Source: Octopus sinensis
Taxonomy: Eukaryota
NCBI RefSeq assembly: GCF_006345805.1
Contig: NC_042999.1
Location: 79,794,001 to 79,858,000, forward strand
Reading direction: 5' to 3'
DNA length: 64,000 nucleotides
The position numbers and the translations under genes were made by a program. The notes below the pieces were generated by a model. The model searched no databases. It saw only the letters and a list, made by a program, of their open reading frames with translations, and had not been told where the DNA came from. Within the stretch, counting starts at the first letter, position 1. Each line of letters opens with the position of its first letter. Of this stretch, positions 37,143 to 53,919 are shown one piece after another.

Positions 37143-37180
<38 letters not shown>

Positions 37181-37212
37181 TTTATTTAAAGCAGCAGAAA
37201 ATTCAACAAAAT

Positions 37213-37250
37213 CTGTTACTCTGAGTTTCTCGTTGCCGTTCATCAGACAG
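37213..37250 (-). ncRNA. Minimal type I hammerhead ribozyme
   Basis: ctgt CTGATGA a-cg-gcaa-cg-a GAAA ctc-a-gag TA acag. Stem I ctgt/acag, GUA cleavage triplet. Confidence 0.8.
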
Positions 37251-38293
37251 TTTTTGCTAGAATGGAACCGATATATCAATTCAATCTATACTCTTACAAA
37301 CGCTACACCTTTAAAAAGAAATGGACTTGTTTGATTAGCCCTTTAGAAAAAACGGTTAATCTTCGAGCGATAAACAAAAAGGTCAAAAATATATGTATAT
37401 ATATATAAAAACTTATAAAAATTATAAAATCCGAGGAAAAAACTTACATTGAATAAAATACATATTGACGTTAATGAAGAAAGTGCAAATTAATGCATAG
37501 AAATTAAACCTGTTATAAATATTACACTGCAATACATATTTATATTAAAATCTACATTTATATATCAACATACACAAAATTATGCGCGCAAACGCCATAC
37601 ATATACAGACGTATGAATATAAATCTAAATATACACATAAAAGCATGTGTACATATATTCACGCAAACCATCTCGCACGCAAGTTAAAATTGATCTATGT
37701 AGCGATTCTCATATACTGAGTAAGGGGGGGGAACGAAAGAAAGGTAGAGAGAGAAAAAGGAACGAAGGTGGTGTGGGGAAAAAATTACGTATACAAGCAG
37801 TGTAACGGCATTATTGGCATATATGGAGACAAGTATACATACACAAGTTTGAATGGATACATATACATACAGTCGTGTATATGTGTACTTAAGCACAAAC
37901 ATACTTTCACTTACACATACACAGATACGCATGCTTACAAATACATATGCTTTGCTATACACATACTTATATCAACCTTCTAATTTTGACAACATTGCTT
38001 TTTTTTAAAAAAAACATTGCTTTTTTTAAAAAAATGGGTGCATTAATAAAAATATATACGAAAGACATATAAAATAAAATATAACATCCTATTTTGGGTC
38101 ATTTATAAATAATCAAGGTAATCCTATACAATACAATAACATGAAAACAAAGTTGGAGGTTTTTCCTAATATATATGTAGAAACATAAGACTTTGCTATA
38201 CGGATTAAGATCCGCATAGCTTGGAAACAAAATCCATCGTAGCGCTCATCGTTCAAGAGTCAAAATCAAAATCAAAAATACAAAATATATACT

Positions 38294-38888
38294 CTATCCA
38301 TATAGTATATTTATATTCGACATTTTAAATTTAGCCGCGTGCCTACATAAGTTCATTAGCTCACTTCTTTGATTCAAAGAATTATTGTCTTTGAATAAGA
38401 TGTACATTTTTTCTAATAGACAAAGCTTGCACTTGAAATTATTTTTGTATGTTCCATGCCTGTATGGTGCCGCCCTGTCCAGAATGCTCCATGTCACGTT
38501 GAAAGGTGGGGCTTCCTTTTCTTTTAGTTCCCAGACATATTTTGCTAGGCTGGTTTTCTTCCTATTCTCTGGGTATTTAAATGAATTTTTATGAGAATAA
38601 AATCTTGTTTCAAATGAATTTTCTGAAGCCCCTGTGTATGTCTTGTATTCCGATGAGCCTTCCACTTGCACCTTGGCTATATAAACTACTCCTTTCACCA
38701 GACATTTCCCTTCTAACGGACAGGAGCTTTCGTTTTTGAAATTACATTTCTTAATGGGCTCGGCACATGTCTAATCTCAATTAGCTTGCTATTATGTTGG
38801 CTAATGTAAGAGGCGAAATTTCTGCAACAAGAATAGCTAACCTTCAGGGTTCTTCTGTTAAATATCCTATAGAATTTATGACCCTGCT
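38294..38888 (-). pseudogene. PLE linker + GIY-YIG endonuclease (one frameshift near 38765)
   Basis: GHKFYRIFNRRTLKVSYSC / CNFKNESSCPLEGKCLVKGVVY..TYTG..FETRFYSHKNSF..TSLAKYVW..WSIL..CKLCLLEK..LNQRSEL..CRH. Confidence 0.92.
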
Positions 38889-39649
38889 TGTTGTCAAAAT
38901 TAGAAGGTTGATATAAGTATGTGTATAGCAAAGCATATGTATTTGTAAGCATGCGTATCTGTGTATGTGTAAGTGAAAGTATGTTTGTACTTAAGCACAC
39001 ATATACACGACTGTATGTATATGTATCCATTCAAACTTGTGTATGTATACTTGTCTCCATATATGCCAATAATGCCGTTACACTGCTTGTATACATAATT
39101 TTTTCTTATTTCGTTTTTTTCCCAACACCTCCTTCGTTCCTTTTTCTCTCTCTACCTTTCTTTCGTCCCCCCCTTACTCAGTATATGAGAATCGCTACAT
39201 AGATCAATTTTAACTTGCGTGCGAGATGGTTTGCGTGAATATATGTACACATGCTTTTATGTGTATATTTATATTTATATTCATACGTCTGTATATGTAT
39301 GGCGTTTGCGCGCATAATTTTGTGTATGTTGATATATATATGTAGATTTTAATATAAATATGTATTGCAGTGTAATATTTATAACAGGTTTAATTTCTAT
39401 GCATTAATTTGCACTTTCTTCATTAACGTCAATATGTATTTTATTCAATGTAAGGTTTTTTCCTCGGATTTTATAATTTTTATAAGTTTTTTTATATATA
39501 TATACATATATTTTTGACCTTTTTGTTTATCGCTCGAAGATTGACCGTTTTTTCTAAAGGGCCAATCAAACAAGTCCATTTCTTTTTAAAGGTGTAGCGT
39601 TTGTAAGAGTATAGATTGAATTGATATATCGGTTCCATTCTAGCAAAAA

Positions 39650-39687
39650 CTATCTGATGAACGGCAACGAGAAACTCAGAGTAACAG
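39650..39687 (+). ncRNA. Minimal type I hammerhead ribozyme (stem I mismatch)
   Basis: ctat CTGATGA acggcaacga GAAA ctcagag TA acag. Inverted twin of 37213-37250. Confidence 0.7.
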
Positions 39688-39819
39688 ATTTTGTTGAATT
39701 TTCTGCTGCTTTAAATAAAGCATATTACTCTACCACTGGTATTTAAGTACTTTTTTTCCACCTTGTTTCACATTTATGTGTTTTCTCCGGTATATATATA
39801 TATAATATATATAATATAT

Positions 39820-43629: not shown

Positions 43630-45220
43630 ATAATTCTACTTTTTCCATATGGCCTAGAGTTTTGAGGGGTGGGGTAATTCGATTACATTGACTGTAGTAC
43701 GTTAAGTGGTACGTTATTTTATCGACCCCAGAAGTATGAAGGACATAGTTGATCACGGTGGGATTTGAAATCTAAAGGTAAAGAGTCTGTACAAATGTTG
43801 CTGAGTACTTTGTCCGATGCGCAAATGATTCTTCTGTTTCACCACCTTAACAAATATAACAATACCTTCAAATTTTGTCACAAGGTCAACAATTTCGAAG
43901 GAGAAAGCAAGTTGATTATATCGAGCCCAGTGTTCAACTCATACTTATTTTATCGACTCCTAAAGGATAAAAGGCAAAGCTGTCCTGAGCGGAATTCGAA
44001 CTCAGAACATAAAGACGCACGAATTGCCGCTAAGAATTTTGCGTGCTAACGATTCTGCCAGCTCGCCGCCTTCTTAGTAAATATATTTCTTTCTAATATA
44101 GACAGACCGTCTGAAATAACATTTACACCCAGTGTTTCACAGGTACTTATTTTATCGACATGTGGAGGCGCAATGGCCCAGTGGTGAGGGCAGCGGACTC
44201 GCGGTCATAGGATCGCGGTTTCGATTCCCAGACCGGGCGTTGTGAGTGTTTATTGAGCGAAAACACTTAAAGCTCCACGCAGCTCCGGCAGGGGATGGTG
44301 GTGATCCCTGCTGTACTCTTTCACCACAACTTTCTCTCACTCTTACTTCCTGTTTCTGTTGTACCTGTATTTCAAAGGGCCGGCCTTGTCACTCTCCGTG
44401 TCACGCTGAATATCCCCGAGAACTACGTTAAGAGTACACGTGTCTGTGGAGTGCTCAGCCACTTACACGCTAATTTCACGAGCAGGCTGTTCCGTTGATT
44501 CGGATCAACTGGAACCCTCGTCGTCGTAACCGACGGAGTGCTTCCATATTCCATTTTATTTGGTGAAAGGCCAAAAATCGACCTCTGTGGAAGTTTAACT
44601 CAGCATGTTGCGACAAACGAAATACCTATTTCTTTACTACTCATAAGGGGCTAAACACAGAGAAGACGGATTAAGTGAGTAACTGGTACTTATTTAATCG
44701 ACCCCGAAAGGATGAAAGGCAAATTCGACCTCGGTGGTATTTGAACTCAGAACGTAGCGTCAGACGAAATATCTATTTCTTTACTACCCACACGGGGCTA
44801 AACACAGGGAGGGCAAACAAGGACAGACAAACGGATTAAGTCGATTATATCGACCCCAGTGCCTAACTGGTACTTATTTAATCGACCCCGAAAGGATGAA
44901 AGGCAAAGTCGACCTCGGCGGAATTTGATCTCAGAACGTAGCGGCAGACGAAATACCGCTAAGCATTTCGCCCGGCGTGCTAACGATTCTGCCAACTCGC
45001 CGCCTTTGTTGCAGCTGATATTAATGATTTCAAATTTTGGTGCAAGGCCAGAAATTTCGTGGGAGATGAAAACCAATTACAACTACCCCAGTGCTGATAC
45101 TTATTTTATCGACCCGAAAGGATGAAAGACAATCTCGACCTCGGCGGAATTTGAATTCGGACGAAATACCCCAAGGCATTTTGCCCGGCGCGGTATCGAT
45201 TCCGCCAGCTTGTCGCTACT
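43630..45220 (-). mobile_element. Cluster/tandem array of SINE family A copies
   Basis: Repeated atcgaccccgaaaggatgaaaggcaaagtcgacctcggcggaatttgaactcagaacg units, all on the minus strand. Confidence 0.88.
44163..44550 (+). mobile_element. SINE family B (tRNA-like head), nested in a family A copy
   Basis: ggaggcgcaatggcccagtggtgagggcagcggactcgcgg..ggtttcgattccc. Its 3' half is shared with 51106-51290. Confidence 0.85.
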
Positions 45221-45699
45221 GCTGCTGATAATAATGACATCAATGATCACCATCACCATCACCATTATCATAAACACGATATCAAATTCATAGGCTTATT
45301 TGTATCATAAAAAAATCATCATCAACATGATGCGAACATAGACACACACACACATACGCATACACATACATATGTTCACACACATACACATACATATATT
45401 CACACACATACATAGTACGCATACCTGTAAAAGAAATATATATACACGACCTGTGAATAAAGCGTGGAATATCAACTACCGATATGGGGTTCGTATATCG
45501 AATTAAAATCTGTATTTAATATCATATACACATACAACTTACATATAAACCCGCACACAGTCACATATTCACAAAATGGCGTACGTTGTCCTAAATACGT
45601 AAATATACACACGCAGGCGCCTGCTCACTCGCACACGCACGGACGCACACACACGCTCACACACGCTCACACACACACACACTCAAACACAAACACACG

Positions 45700-46326: not shown

Positions 46327-46383
<57 letters not shown>

Positions 46384-46432
46384 AATAAATGAAAGAATGG
46401 AGTCGAACGAAGATGTTAACAAAATTCCTTTA

Positions 46433-46514
46433 CTCTCGACATATGTTTCGAAGACAACATGGTTTCATTCCAAAGGAATAAAGGGTGCATTATGCAATCT
46501 TCTCATCAGGAAAG
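46433..46514 (-). ncRNA. Type I hammerhead ribozyme with branched stem II
   Basis: Reverse-complement twin of 46626-46707. Confidence 0.82.
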
Positions 46515-46625
46515 AAAGGGACCCTCTCTCGACAACAAGACAAACAAAAATTTCGATGACTGCCTACATGGTAAACAAAACGATAACCGTTTTTGTTTGT
46601 CTTGTTGTCGGGAGAGGCTCCCTTT

Positions 46626-46707
46626 CTTTCCTGATGAGAAGATTGCATAATGCACCCTTTATTCCTTTGGAATGAAACCATGTTGTCTTCGAAACATATG
46701 TCGAGAG
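46626..46707 (+). ncRNA. Type I hammerhead ribozyme with branched stem II
   Basis: ctttc CTGATGA gaaga..tcttc GAAA catatg TC gagag. Intact core, palindromic stem III ACATATGT, GUC triplet. Confidence 0.85.
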
Positions 46708-46907
46708 TAAAGGAATTTTGTTAACATCTTCGTTCGACTCTATTCTTTCATTTATTCATATACAACACACAAATTTCTGCACATGAACCTGGAGTTTCTA
46801 CCCTTGGACAGGTCGCTTCAACCGTGTTTCTGACGTGAATTTGCTACCCTGGTTTCGGTTCAACGAATTTTCCATGCTGACTATAAACATAGGATAATTC
46901 ATTCACC

Positions 46908-46945
<38 letters not shown>

Positions 46946-46946
<1 letters not shown>

Positions 46947-47326
46947 TCTTTACTCTTTTACTATTTTACTTGTTTCAGTCATTTGACTGCGGCCATGCTG
47001 GAGCACCGCCTTTAGTCGAGCAAATCGATCCCGGGACTTATTCTTTGTAAGCCTAGTACTTATTCTATCGGTCTCTTTTGCCGAACCGCTAAGTGACGGG
47101 GACGTAAACACACCAGCATCGGTTGTCAAGCAATGGTAGTGGGACAAACACAAACACACACACACATACATATATACATATATACGACAGGCTTCTTTCA
47201 GTTTCCGTCTACCAAATCCACTCACAAGGCATTGGTCGGCCCGGGGCTATAGCAGAAGACACTTGCCCAAGATGCCACGCAGTGGGACTGAACCCGGAAC
47301 CTACTTACCACACAGCCACTCCTGCG

Positions 47327-47689: not shown

Positions 47690-49045
47690 TTATCTGTTCC
47701 TCTAAAGTAAAACTTTTTCTTGCTCATTTTCATTGTACGCAAATAAAATGTTTCAAGAAGAAACAATGCACCATCATTGAGTCCTTAATGGCGTTTTTTT
47801 GCAGGATGTATAGCATCCCTGAAGTGTATAGGCTGTTTGTGGAGATCATACGGTTGGAAATCATCAACTATAATTAACACGATTCGTCAACTAGTGAATG
47901 AGTTGACTCACGAGAACAGAAGAGTCACTCTTCGTCAGCTGTTGGATAACTTCGCTGTAGTCTATATGTAGGCGGCGAGGTAGCAGAAATCATTAGCACG
48001 CCAGGCAAAATGCTTAAAATATTTCGTCCAAATTTGAGTTCAAATTCCGCTGCGGTCAATTTTCTCCTTTATCTTTTCGGAGTCGATGAAATAATTATCA
48101 GCTGAACATTGGGTTCGATATAATCGACTTGACCACTCCCTCGGAATTGTTGGCCTTGTTCCAAGATTGGAAATCAATATGAATTGTAAAATATGGTATA
48201 AGGTTCTGTCTATTGGAATGTGTGTATCGAAGTTGGGTACCTTGTCAGCTGATATCTGATTTGAAGGAGGAAAATAGTAGAATTTGCTCTCGTGTGAGGA
48301 ATGTCTTTGAAGTTAATGAGAATACGTTCTTTTCTCGACCTAGTCATATCGGATGAAATGTGATCTAAATCTTTTATAATCTTCAACGATACCTCAGTCG
48401 ATGGAATGACGTCACACTTCTTCTCCAAAGCCTAAGACGTTTTAGAACTAGTGCTCTGTACAGAAAAGAAAGTTGAGTGTTTTGGTGAATGACAAGGGTG
48501 TCATTCATTTTGATTTTCTGGAACGTGTTTGTACCGTCAGCGACAGGACACTGAAGAACTAAAAAAGCATAGATTAGACATTAGGATGAAGAAACCGAAC
48601 TAACATTTAAATGCGATTTACATTCACCACAACAATGCCTGACCAGTCATCTTTGGCAACAAATCAGGTTCTCAGCAAACTGAGCTGATTAGTGCACCCC
48701 ATCGACCGTACAGTATGAATCTGGCTTCCTACTTCCGTCTGTTTGATCCAATGAAGAACAATCTTCATACTCAATGATTTGATTACACAAACGAAGTGAA
48801 AGTTCTTGTGAAAAAGTGGGTACAACTGAGCCCATGTGAATGCTTTGAAAGAGGACTTCAGAGACAGCAGACAAGTATTCCTTGTGATGAAAACTATGTT
48901 GAGTATATTTGTATTGAGAAAGGGTTATACAATAATCAACATGTGCAATTTGAAAGGCGTATGTCAGTTTATATGTGCAGTTTTAATAACATATGTTATT
49001 TTATAAAAAAGTTATGTCTGCTTTTGAATCCCTTTTTAAGGAACT
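47690..49045 (+). pseudogene. Decayed mariner (DD34D) transposon, interrupted by a SINE and another insert
   Basis: KQCTIIE.., ENRRVTLRQL, DKGVIHFDFLE, IYIHHNNA*P (HDNARPH), PHRPYSMNLAS (PHPPYSPDLAP), EVKVLVKKWV..FERGL..NYVE. Confidence 0.8.
47968..48180 (+). mobile_element. SINE family A nested in mariner
   Basis: ggcggcgaggtagcagaaatcattagcacgcc..gagttcaaattccgc. Confidence 0.8.
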
Positions 49046-51508: not shown

Positions 51509-51957
51509 ACATATATAATATATATATGTATGTATGTGTATATATATCTATATATGTGTGTGTGTGTGTAAGCATCCACACAACCACATGAGCACAGACA
51601 CGCACGGGCATATGCTTCTGTATATATATATATCAAAGGGGATTTCTTGAAATCGAGGTGATTGTGTAAGTTAGCACTCATAAAAATACTCACTGAATGT
51701 ATAGAAGGGAATAGTGCTTCAGTTGGAGGAAGTGTTCCACACGAACCGACAGACCAGCAAAGTTTTGTCAGTCACAGAATATAGAGTAACTAGTGAAAAT
51801 AAATAGGACGCATTTATTCGTATTTTGCGATTTGCTCAATCGGTCTTCATTAGATGTCCGGTTGGTCTATTGTAATATAGCTTAAAATTGTATAATCTAT
51901 CTTTATACTCATGTTTACACGTTTTTTACAATGTCAATCGCTTTATCTGTCAGATTT

Positions 51958-52971
<1,014 letters not shown>

Positions 52972-53001
52972 AAATAAGCCACAAGGATATCCAGAGGTAA
53001 T

Positions 53002-53091
53002 GCAGTATGATCGTTTCATGCGACTCCATTTAATTGGAGAATGTAATCATTTCATTACATCAATTTAAATTGTAGAGCAATCCTCAGCTGC
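53002..53091 (-). ncRNA. Type I hammerhead with long stem II (stem III mutated)
   Basis: gcag CTGAGGA t-tgc..(~60 nt)..gca-t GAAA cgatca TA ctgc. Confidence 0.65.
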
Positions 53092-53640
53092 AGAATGACA
53101 TAGAATTTAATTAAATTAGAACGCATTAGTATAATTTTACCCCAAATCTCCGAGAAGATAAGGAGATAGACATCTTTTATCAGCAGCATCACAGTTGTAA
53201 CTGAAATGTTTTCAAGAAAGACTCTGCCTGTCATTGATTTTTCTGTTATTTAGTTTTGAAATACGGTGGTGGGGTCAGTTTTAATGTATAGACTAGTTTA
53301 TCAAATCCTTTGTATATTTAAGGCTGAGAGAAGACAGAGGGTAGTATATGTTTGGAGTAGGTTCGGTGGAGTAAACAGACATTCGAAATGGTATAGTCAT
53401 AAAATCAAGATATATTTGAAGCAATGTCATGAGGTTTAGTAAAAGAATACTTCAAACAAGTTGCTGGCTGCTATTAAGGGATCGCTTATTAGTAGATCAG
53501 TGCTAATAGGACAGGGGAAGTCTTATCATGTAGTCCTATACTTAATTACTATAGTAGTTACTTATAGTAGTTAACTGTAGTACTACAGTTATACTAATTA
53601 TACTAATGTGTCCTAATTTAATTAATTTCTATGTCTTTGT

Positions 53641-53730
53641 GCAGCTGAGGATTGCTCTACATTTTGAATTGATGTAATGAAATGATTGCATTGTTCAATT
53701 AAATGGAGTCGCATGAAACATTCTCACTGC
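53641..53730 (+). ncRNA. Degenerate hammerhead twin
   Basis: gcag CTGAGGA ttgc..gcat GAAA cattctca ctgc. Stem III and the cleavage triplet have decayed. Confidence 0.45.
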
Positions 53731-53849
53731 ATTACCTCTAGATATATTTGCTACTTATTTTGATTTTAATCACCTTATTTTCAAATTGTATGGATAATAC
53801 CAAACTAAATTCTGGTGCCTCAACTTAAGTACCATATTCATCAGAATCT

Positions 53850-53919
<70 letters not shown>

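Follow-up and report, generated by a model that had tools for sequence, protein, structure and literature searches.

The foldback at positions 46384-46907 of the Octopus sinensis window (the whole 64,000-nt stretch of DNA that we analyzed) consists of two copies, each truncated on its 5' side, that meet head to head; both end in (TA)n, and one has a 151-nt tail. We interpret it, with a probability of roughly 0.85, as the dead-end product of one insertion by a high-copy Penelope-like retroelement (PLE), in which two 5'-truncated, hammerhead-bearing ends came to lie head to head in (TA)n, one of them with an extra 3' tail. The foldback itself is likely a by-product of insertion, since its junction is rare in the repeat family, the spacer is part of just one of the copies, and elsewhere in the family the joints fall at different points. 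An initial annotation had described a distinct ORF-less element that pits ribozyme against hairpin by design, a view against which the rare junction, the one-copy spacer, and the scattered joints all speak. The link that it drew to type I hammerheads of PLE pLTRs with a palindromic, dimer-type stem III is upheld.

Structure of the foldback

The locus lies in an AT-rich, microsatellite-laden animal genome. Its inverted arms, previously estimated at ~167 bp, are 167 nt each (46384-46550 and 46590-46756), with three mismatches and 39 nt between them. The near-perfect foldback that had been placed at 46384..46910 is thus a real inverted repeat, but the unit runs from 46384 to 46907 and is asymmetric. 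There is no ORF within these 524 nt; the tail (46757-46907) lacks one as well, its three-frame translation being interrupted by stops. The features of the locus and of its two counterparts in the window are given in Table 1.

Table 1. Coordinates of the features discussed in the text (window positions)
Feature	Position	Strand	Remarks
Left (TA)n flank	46368..46383	+	Contains one G; candidate 16-nt target-site duplication of the left copy, identical to 46908-46923
Left copy, PLE end module (pLTR fragment)	46384..46586	-	Read from 46586 to 46384; 5'-truncated at 46586; 3' end adjoins (TA)n
Mirror hammerhead motif	46427..46519	-	Identical across these 93 nt; predicted cut after 46438
Foldback spacer	46551..46586	-	36 nt; extra 5' part of the left copy, no separate loop (contig depth and loose ends)
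Junction letters	46587..46589	.	Three letters continuing neither copy (contig loose-end table)
Right copy, arm part	46590..46756	+	5' truncation lies ~36-39 nt downstream of that of the left copy
Type I hammerhead motif	46621..46713	+	Stem I of 5 bp, bulge, and 5 bp; predicted cut after C46702
Extended helix II	46638..46690	+	53 nt; from the MFE fold before variants, then pair probabilities and variant test
One-sided 3' tail	46757..46907	+	151 nt, family sequence; contig pieces cross from arm to tail in 4/4 runs
Right (TA)n flank	46908..46923	+	Candidate target-site duplication of the right copy; G at 46911 possibly part of the element
Larger head-to-head PLE foldback	37180-39790		Arms ~830 nt, 96% alike; (TA)n at both ends
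Second further foldback, twin hammerheads	52970-53853		Arms 88% alike; tail ~88 nt; (TA)n ends

At the center, the three junction letters and their neighbors close a 10-bp snap-back hairpin (46573-46598), for which the DNA fold, run without a shuffle control, gave -6.3 kcal/mol. The outer edges are suggestive of a 16-nt target-site duplication at both (TA)n flanks, although such evidence is weak because 10 of the 70 TA runs in the window share an ending of this kind. Four of the five features of EN+ PLE insertions that we tested are present, namely an inverted truncated copy, a one-sided tail, a (TA)n target, and a pLTR hammerhead. No RT or GIY-YIG ORF came to light for the family in the short contigs, whose loose ends were read over 30 letters.

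A high-copy family in which the junction is rare

Alignment of public contigs on 46500-46910 gave matches in 4/4 runs (2437, 2201, 1464, and 236 contigs; runs X1, X3, X5, and X7), the first three of which are labelled as three organisms. The locus is one member of a large, high-copy repeat family, with the understanding that contig depth is not a copy number. At one position of the right arm, T46741, more than 99% of the family depth carries C.

Depth in X1 was 132,000-363,000 over 46542-46583, which places the spacer at family level, vs 15,000 at 46584-46597. Between the preceding bin and this junction bin, it dropped from 132,282 to 15,103 in X1, from 75,501 to 11,784 in X3, from 6,058 to 803 in X5, and from 164 to 38 in X7, i.e., ~9-, 6-, 8-, and 4-fold. 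Loose ends behind 46586 (18 contigs in X1 and 3 in X7) revealed that the family goes on upstream with other, A/T-rich letters, while those before 46598 look like reverse-complemented spacer. Its family-level depth and the loose ends behind 46586 identify the spacer as an upstream stretch of the left copy, read on the minus strand.

Contig joints point in the same direction. Among the 13 joints listed, 10 connect the spacer (46553-46585) with a site further along (46615-46879), in one contig each. These are moderate evidence for head-to-head geometry with other breakpoints, and only moderate because just 3 of the 10 have at least 30 letters on the short side; in the remaining 7, one side comprises <30 letters, matched at 80% likeness, a range flagged as unreliable. 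The exact junction, with 31 letters on each side, was bridged by none of the 32 pieces listed out of 6,390.

These data bear on the possibility that the foldback as a whole propagates itself as one fixed unit, either MITE-like or a hairpin-RNA element in which duplex and ribozyme folds act as a switch. Such a unit would agree with arms that are 98% alike, with the candidate 16-nt target duplication, and with the duplex into which a read-through transcript is predicted to fold (~-320 kcal/mol), as the initial annotation had anticipated. We nevertheless regard it as very improbable: depth at the junction collapses in 4/4 runs, no bridging piece appears among those listed, the other joints are scattered over many places, and the same pattern recurs in the window with unrelated families. 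Many copies sharing both their ends and an internal junction, the feature expected of a MITE or a fixed foldback, were not found, with depth falling 4- to 9-fold and joints scattering.

A second step down in depth, near 46752-46779, occurs in X3 and X5 and not in X1 or X7; it could reflect a sister subfamily that diverges at 46777, as an alternative to a recurrent short 3' end. Metagenome contigs contained no match to the exact family motif.

Hammerhead core and predicted cut site

The complete hammerhead that had been noted in each arm (CUGAUGA, GAAA, GUC, and a palindromic stem III) was located in both, and the conserved core of CUGANGA, GAAA, and UH is present in type I order. CUGAUGA occupies 46631-46637 on the plus strand and lies at 46509 on the minus strand, and GAAA is found at 46691-46694. 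Stem III is the palindrome ACAUAUGU (46694-46701), after which comes the GUC triplet with C17 at 46702; the cut previously expected 3' of 46702 agrees with this predicted position. A scan of the whole window, requiring the core, stem I, and a palindromic stem III, returned three matches (the pair at the locus and one at 37246 on the minus strand), compared with one match in total over 20 block shuffles, which argues that the motif is not due to chance. In addition, no variant falls on the 12 core positions among the 40 of 52 variants listed (chance 0.10).

Rfam hammerhead models, to which the initial annotation had looked for confirmation, gave no match at the gathering threshold and are absent from the 28 matches obtained at E<=10, probably owing to the length of helix II and the very small stem III. 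Matches to Rfam microRNA families, all below the gathering score, reflect hairpin and TA content.

The dimer formed through the palindromic stem III has a predicted duplex energy of -7.0 kcal/mol, and with the variant A46698G it stays paired via G-U wobbles. When flanks are included, the hammerhead fold has a near-zero predicted probability even in a single copy. Separately, a joint in a single X3 contig falls right on the predicted cut site (46702->46791), with 29 letters on the short side, an observation that carries no weight alone.

Stem I, helix II, and family variants

The 5-bp stem I originally assigned (ctttc/gagag) is present and is predicted to be part of a longer helix: in the centroid fold, it continues beyond the bulged U46708 with a further 5 bp (46621-46625/46709-46713), giving a stem I of ~10 bp. 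Helix II is predicted to comprise 6 bp (46638-46643/46685-46690), a U.U, 4 bp (46645-46648/46680-46683), an internal loop, and 8 bp (46658-46665/46669-46676) closed by a triloop. We favor a model in which it forms a single long, irregular, and unbranched hairpin, rather than the branched stem II first proposed. The branched form costs 5.6 kcal/mol at equal stem I, and both variants and folds favor the unbranched one. Of the two inner hairpins on which the branched form relied, attcc/ggaat was confirmed and is 8 bp long, whereas tgca-taa-tgca has a pair probability of 0.19 vs 0.72 for the long helix and is broken by the variant G46652A, which makes up 12-16% of depth in X1, X3, and X5.

Sixteen listed variants lie within 46621-46713; as stated above, the list holds 40 of 52 rows, and the variants are unphased, so only single-sided changes are seen. 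Eight of the sixteen fall on predicted pairs, and seven of these keep pairing, which by itself corresponds to P=0.06. All four G-U pairs have a change to Watson-Crick (permutation P=0.007). G46712A breaks a stem I pair unless accompanied by C46622T. Inspection of loose ends shows the sister subfamily to differ at four sites in the 3' half of helix II; pairing with the 5' strand improves at three of them, and at the fourth it is lost, barring a compensating change absent among the rows listed. The three helices around the core are retained across relatives, and it is likely that the hammerhead has been maintained by selection in the RNA of the parent element.

A 9-nt word around the predicted cut site repeats ~93 nt upstream in the left copy (46526-46534 on the minus strand, mirrored at 46606-46614 on the plus strand). 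Pairing between this word and the 5' strand of stem I could yield a 9-bp hairpin whose predicted energy rivals that of the type I fold; on these folds, the repeat could serve as a decoy or as a second cut site. A type III alternative modeled for the left copy reached a predicted -18.7 kcal/mol vs -19.3 kcal/mol for type I. We set it aside as a low-odds lead: its stem III has just 3 bp and a near-zero probability, 23% of X1 depth carries a variant at the upstream C, and the sister subfamily has different upstream letters.

A more speculative extension, which we consider unlikely, is that the long helix II (53 nt here and 63 nt in a second, unrelated family of the window) would be a recurring working module of cephalopod (TA)n-targeting PLEs, for instance a protein docking site that switches the ribozyme on, and that it has been missed by capped descriptors. 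Under the same proposal, the upstream repeat, intact in the left copy, could also supply a rival 9-bp stem I and a type III-like cut without a dimer.

Other foldbacks and PLE fragments in the window

Twin-hammerhead foldbacks are routine here, with three in 64 kb. The largest (37180-39790) has hammerhead cores at 37246 (-) and 39654 (+), one ending each arm, and a right-copy tail of ~70 nt. Its 895-nt spacer holds a fragment of a Hydra-type GIY-YIG C-terminal ORF (38294-38770, minus strand), and the 3' region from ORF to ribozyme exceeds 1 kb. The third foldback (52970-53853) has the core CUGAGGA at 53087 (-) and 53645 (+) with a 5-bp stem I; the 63 nt that lead to GAAA in this family are predicted to form two hairpins in a branched arrangement. 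Another copy of the latter family, near 2825 (2790-2990), has its palindromic stem III intact but no 5' core; it comes immediately after a Hydra-type RT fragment (1500-2790) devoid of its endonuclease part.

The arms of the three foldbacks have diverged by 1.8% (the 46384 locus), ~4%, and ~12%, so that the young age attributed to the element in the initial annotation holds in relative terms.

The fragments in the window share motifs with the Hydra-clade consensi of PMC8557442 File S7 when compared by eye. Their naming as PLE rests on this comparison, since Pfam found no family at the curated cut-off for five nearby ORF fragments and a homologue search with the GIY-YIG fragment against longer proteins scored 0 of 183 candidates.

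We also observed a further region at 51740-52723 (-) that comprises a GIY-YIG-like C-terminal ORF fragment (52346-52723, minus strand) and, after it, a 3' region in which a decayed hammerhead-like core lies near 51850. The whole region borders the (TA)n run ahead of the 52970 foldback. Clusters of SINE-like repeats, several of them tandem, lie around the locus at 44000-45230, 46960-47320, and 47960-48160, and are apparently similar to octopus SINEs.

The neighboring foldbacks are also relevant to whether the locus might be an assembly or library artefact in a microsatellite-flanked repeat. Inverted PLE structures trouble assemblies, according to PMC8557442, and the exact junction has no independent bridging among the pieces listed. 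However, the arms differ at three places, the flanks differ and the inversion ends at the element edge, three extra letters stand at the junction, and the geometry matches that of two older, more diverged foldbacks nearby. Taken together, an artefact is the least probable of the explanations we considered.

Proposed course of the insertion

For an insertion of this kind, we propose that the GIY-YIG endonuclease of the element would nick both strands of (TA)n and that reverse transcription would start at two RNA sites ~150 nt apart, one giving the short end and the other the tailed end. Both cDNAs would then stop early and be joined at their truncated ends, possibly aided by the short snap-back hairpin; such a course would yield precisely the unit observed. 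Two primings are favored over a pure fold-back of one cDNA because the tail is present solely on the copy with the shorter 5' end. PMC11167929 explains the PLE tail as the gap between two RT start sites, with both DNA strands cut and extended, while PMC3846280 proposes self-priming on an antisense template for head-to-head junctions.

As for the ribozyme, the parent RNA may be cleaved 3' of GUC, either in dimers that pair via the ACAUAUGU palindrome or with the help of a protein. PMC4209133 reports that related PLE ribozymes cleave weakly as dimers, and PMC11167929 describes an anole element whose hammerhead cleavage needed protein and was unnecessary for insertion in vitro. At the genomic copy, a read-through RNA would form the predicted 167-bp duplex and thereby silence both ribozymes, an effect that we view as a by-product and not as design.

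Comparison with known elements

The closest likeness is to the complex insertions of EN+ PLEs. PMC8557442 describes PLE insertions with an inverted 5'-truncated copy, a one-sided tail, and a (TA)n bias, and PMC3846280 reports that the head-to-head arrangement is the most frequent and that palindromes occur at junctions. Judging from these sources (including PMC8557442 Fig. 2), the locus shares with such insertions the head-to-head copies, unequal 5' truncation, a tail at one end, (TA)n, a hammerhead in the end module, and a junction hairpin. It differs in that its copies are just 200-320 nt and without an ORF, and in that its tail is longer (151 nt vs the published 30-40 nt); tails of the neighboring foldbacks are ~70 and 88 nt.

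With the type I hammerheads of metazoan PLEs, as given in PMC4209133, the locus shares the topology, intact core, G10.1-C11.1, palindromic stem III, and dual motifs on opposite strands; that source describes dual minimal hammerheads on opposite strands, 100-700 bp apart, in Schistosoma mansoni. In both, helix II is longer than canonical. The locus nonetheless has 53 nt from CUGAUGA to GAAA with an inner 8-bp hairpin vs the 7-8 bp helices of that source, lacks an extra nucleotide after A9, and has a stem I of ~10 bp.

Hydra-clade PLEs, represented by Hydra-1_Obim and Penelope-13_HM in the available portions of PMC8557442 Files S1, S2, and S7, have in common with the locus the (TA)n preference, an AC..GT palindromic stem III, and an end soon after the ribozyme, and with the neighboring fragments of the window the RT and endonuclease motifs, as judged by eye. 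For Penelope-13_HM, these files record a truncated copy in inverted orientation as well as hammerheads on either strand. Unlike the locus, the Hydra-clade hammerheads listed have a short helix II, and the family had no sequence match to those portions of the files. More broadly, a search for short family motifs found none in the available Naiad, Chlamys, and Hydra consensus files of that paper, where a match split by wrapped lines could be missed. The Naiad clade was considered and rejected, as the short motifs are absent from the accessible supplement and the 3' ends of Naiad_Obim and Naiad_Ovul are unlike the locus by eye. The same holds for a derivation from the Naiad 'HHR_half_core' (an attractive candidate for its published spacer of 35-50 nt), since the octopus Naiad 3' ends in that material do not resemble the family.

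A long helix II has a counterpart in a plant. The hammerhead of PLE-X1_sMoe from Selaginella, given in PMC8557442 File S2, has a helix II segment of 53 nt as well (9 bp, a 35-nt loop, and 9), which is marked in that file as deviating from canonical; the element itself differs in being a plant, endonuclease-less, and rDNA-targeting PLE, and its sequence is unrelated to the locus. Given this segment and the published dual hammerheads, neither the foldback nor the long helix II is without precedent. Our literature search, conducted mostly outside subscription papers, found no report of an octopus hammerhead beyond PMC8557442; it likewise found no account of the repeat family or of any animal PLE with a long helix II. 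In the accessible text of the Octopus vulgaris repeat paper PMC13282606, there is no mention of ribozymes, and one supplement file holds no sequences. 

Lunse et al. reportedly described dimer-cleaving PLE hammerheads, a set that may include long helix II variants.

Non-LTR retrozymes of metazoans (PMC7229834 and bioRxiv 10.64898/2026.07.22.740005) resemble the locus in the lack of an ORF, the type I hammerhead, and high copy. An alternative in which the locus is a non-autonomous pLTR derivative, i.e., a retrozyme-like monomer of a few hundred nucleotides with no close coding parent that is moved in trans by a PLE, would still make the foldback a by-product. It could account for 524 nt without an ORF and for the very high copy signal in contigs, and animal retrozymes reportedly derive from pLTRs (the same bioRxiv source). 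We find it quite unlikely, since retrozymes are arranged head to tail in tandem and have circular RNAs, while the locus is head to head and single: no head-to-tail tandem hammerhead unit is found there, and none of the 13 joints listed connects a 3' end with a following 5' end. Furthermore, the family continues upstream of 46586 in A/T-rich sequence, and the sibling foldbacks of the window stem from coding PLEs. The insertion of a truncated PLE remains our preferred reading.

Significance and additional observations

The twin hammerheads are real, structured, and conserved within the family, and the locus is likely an ordinary PLE insertion scar in which only the unusually long helix II is mildly notable. 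It offers a clean, small example of how a PLE lands, and the window as a whole presents three ages of scar (arm divergence of ~2%, 4%, and 12%). An animal genome harbors high-copy hammerheads with a helix II segment of 50-60 nt that neither Rfam nor short-spacer descriptors pick up; counts of PLE hammerheads, and claims of families lacking them, may therefore be too low and in need of caution, respectively. The long helix II also provides a simple deletion handle on what PLE hammerheads do, and the foldbacks are potential sources of long dsRNA, if transcribed.

A search with the general long-helix-II pattern revealed 0 matches in viral contigs and 5 in metagenome contigs. The latter are not relatives, as the long helix forms in none of them and none has the motif within an inverted pair. 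Three metagenome contigs, L002 (1961-2021, minus strand), L003 (3488-3548), and L004 (1068-1128), carry a near-identical hammerhead-like motif with the same palindromic stem III. In this motif, ~30 extra nt follow the CUGAUGA box before a 3-bp helix II; it is unrelated to the family at the locus and lies on repeat-rich contigs.

Finally, the tail contains a branch-point-like word within 46828-46851 (+), ~17 nt before a position that is A in 82-87% of the family depth, which gives AG. No spliced joint for this AG appears among the joints listed. Judged from the letters, it is possible that the AG is an intron acceptor; PLE end modules often contain introns.
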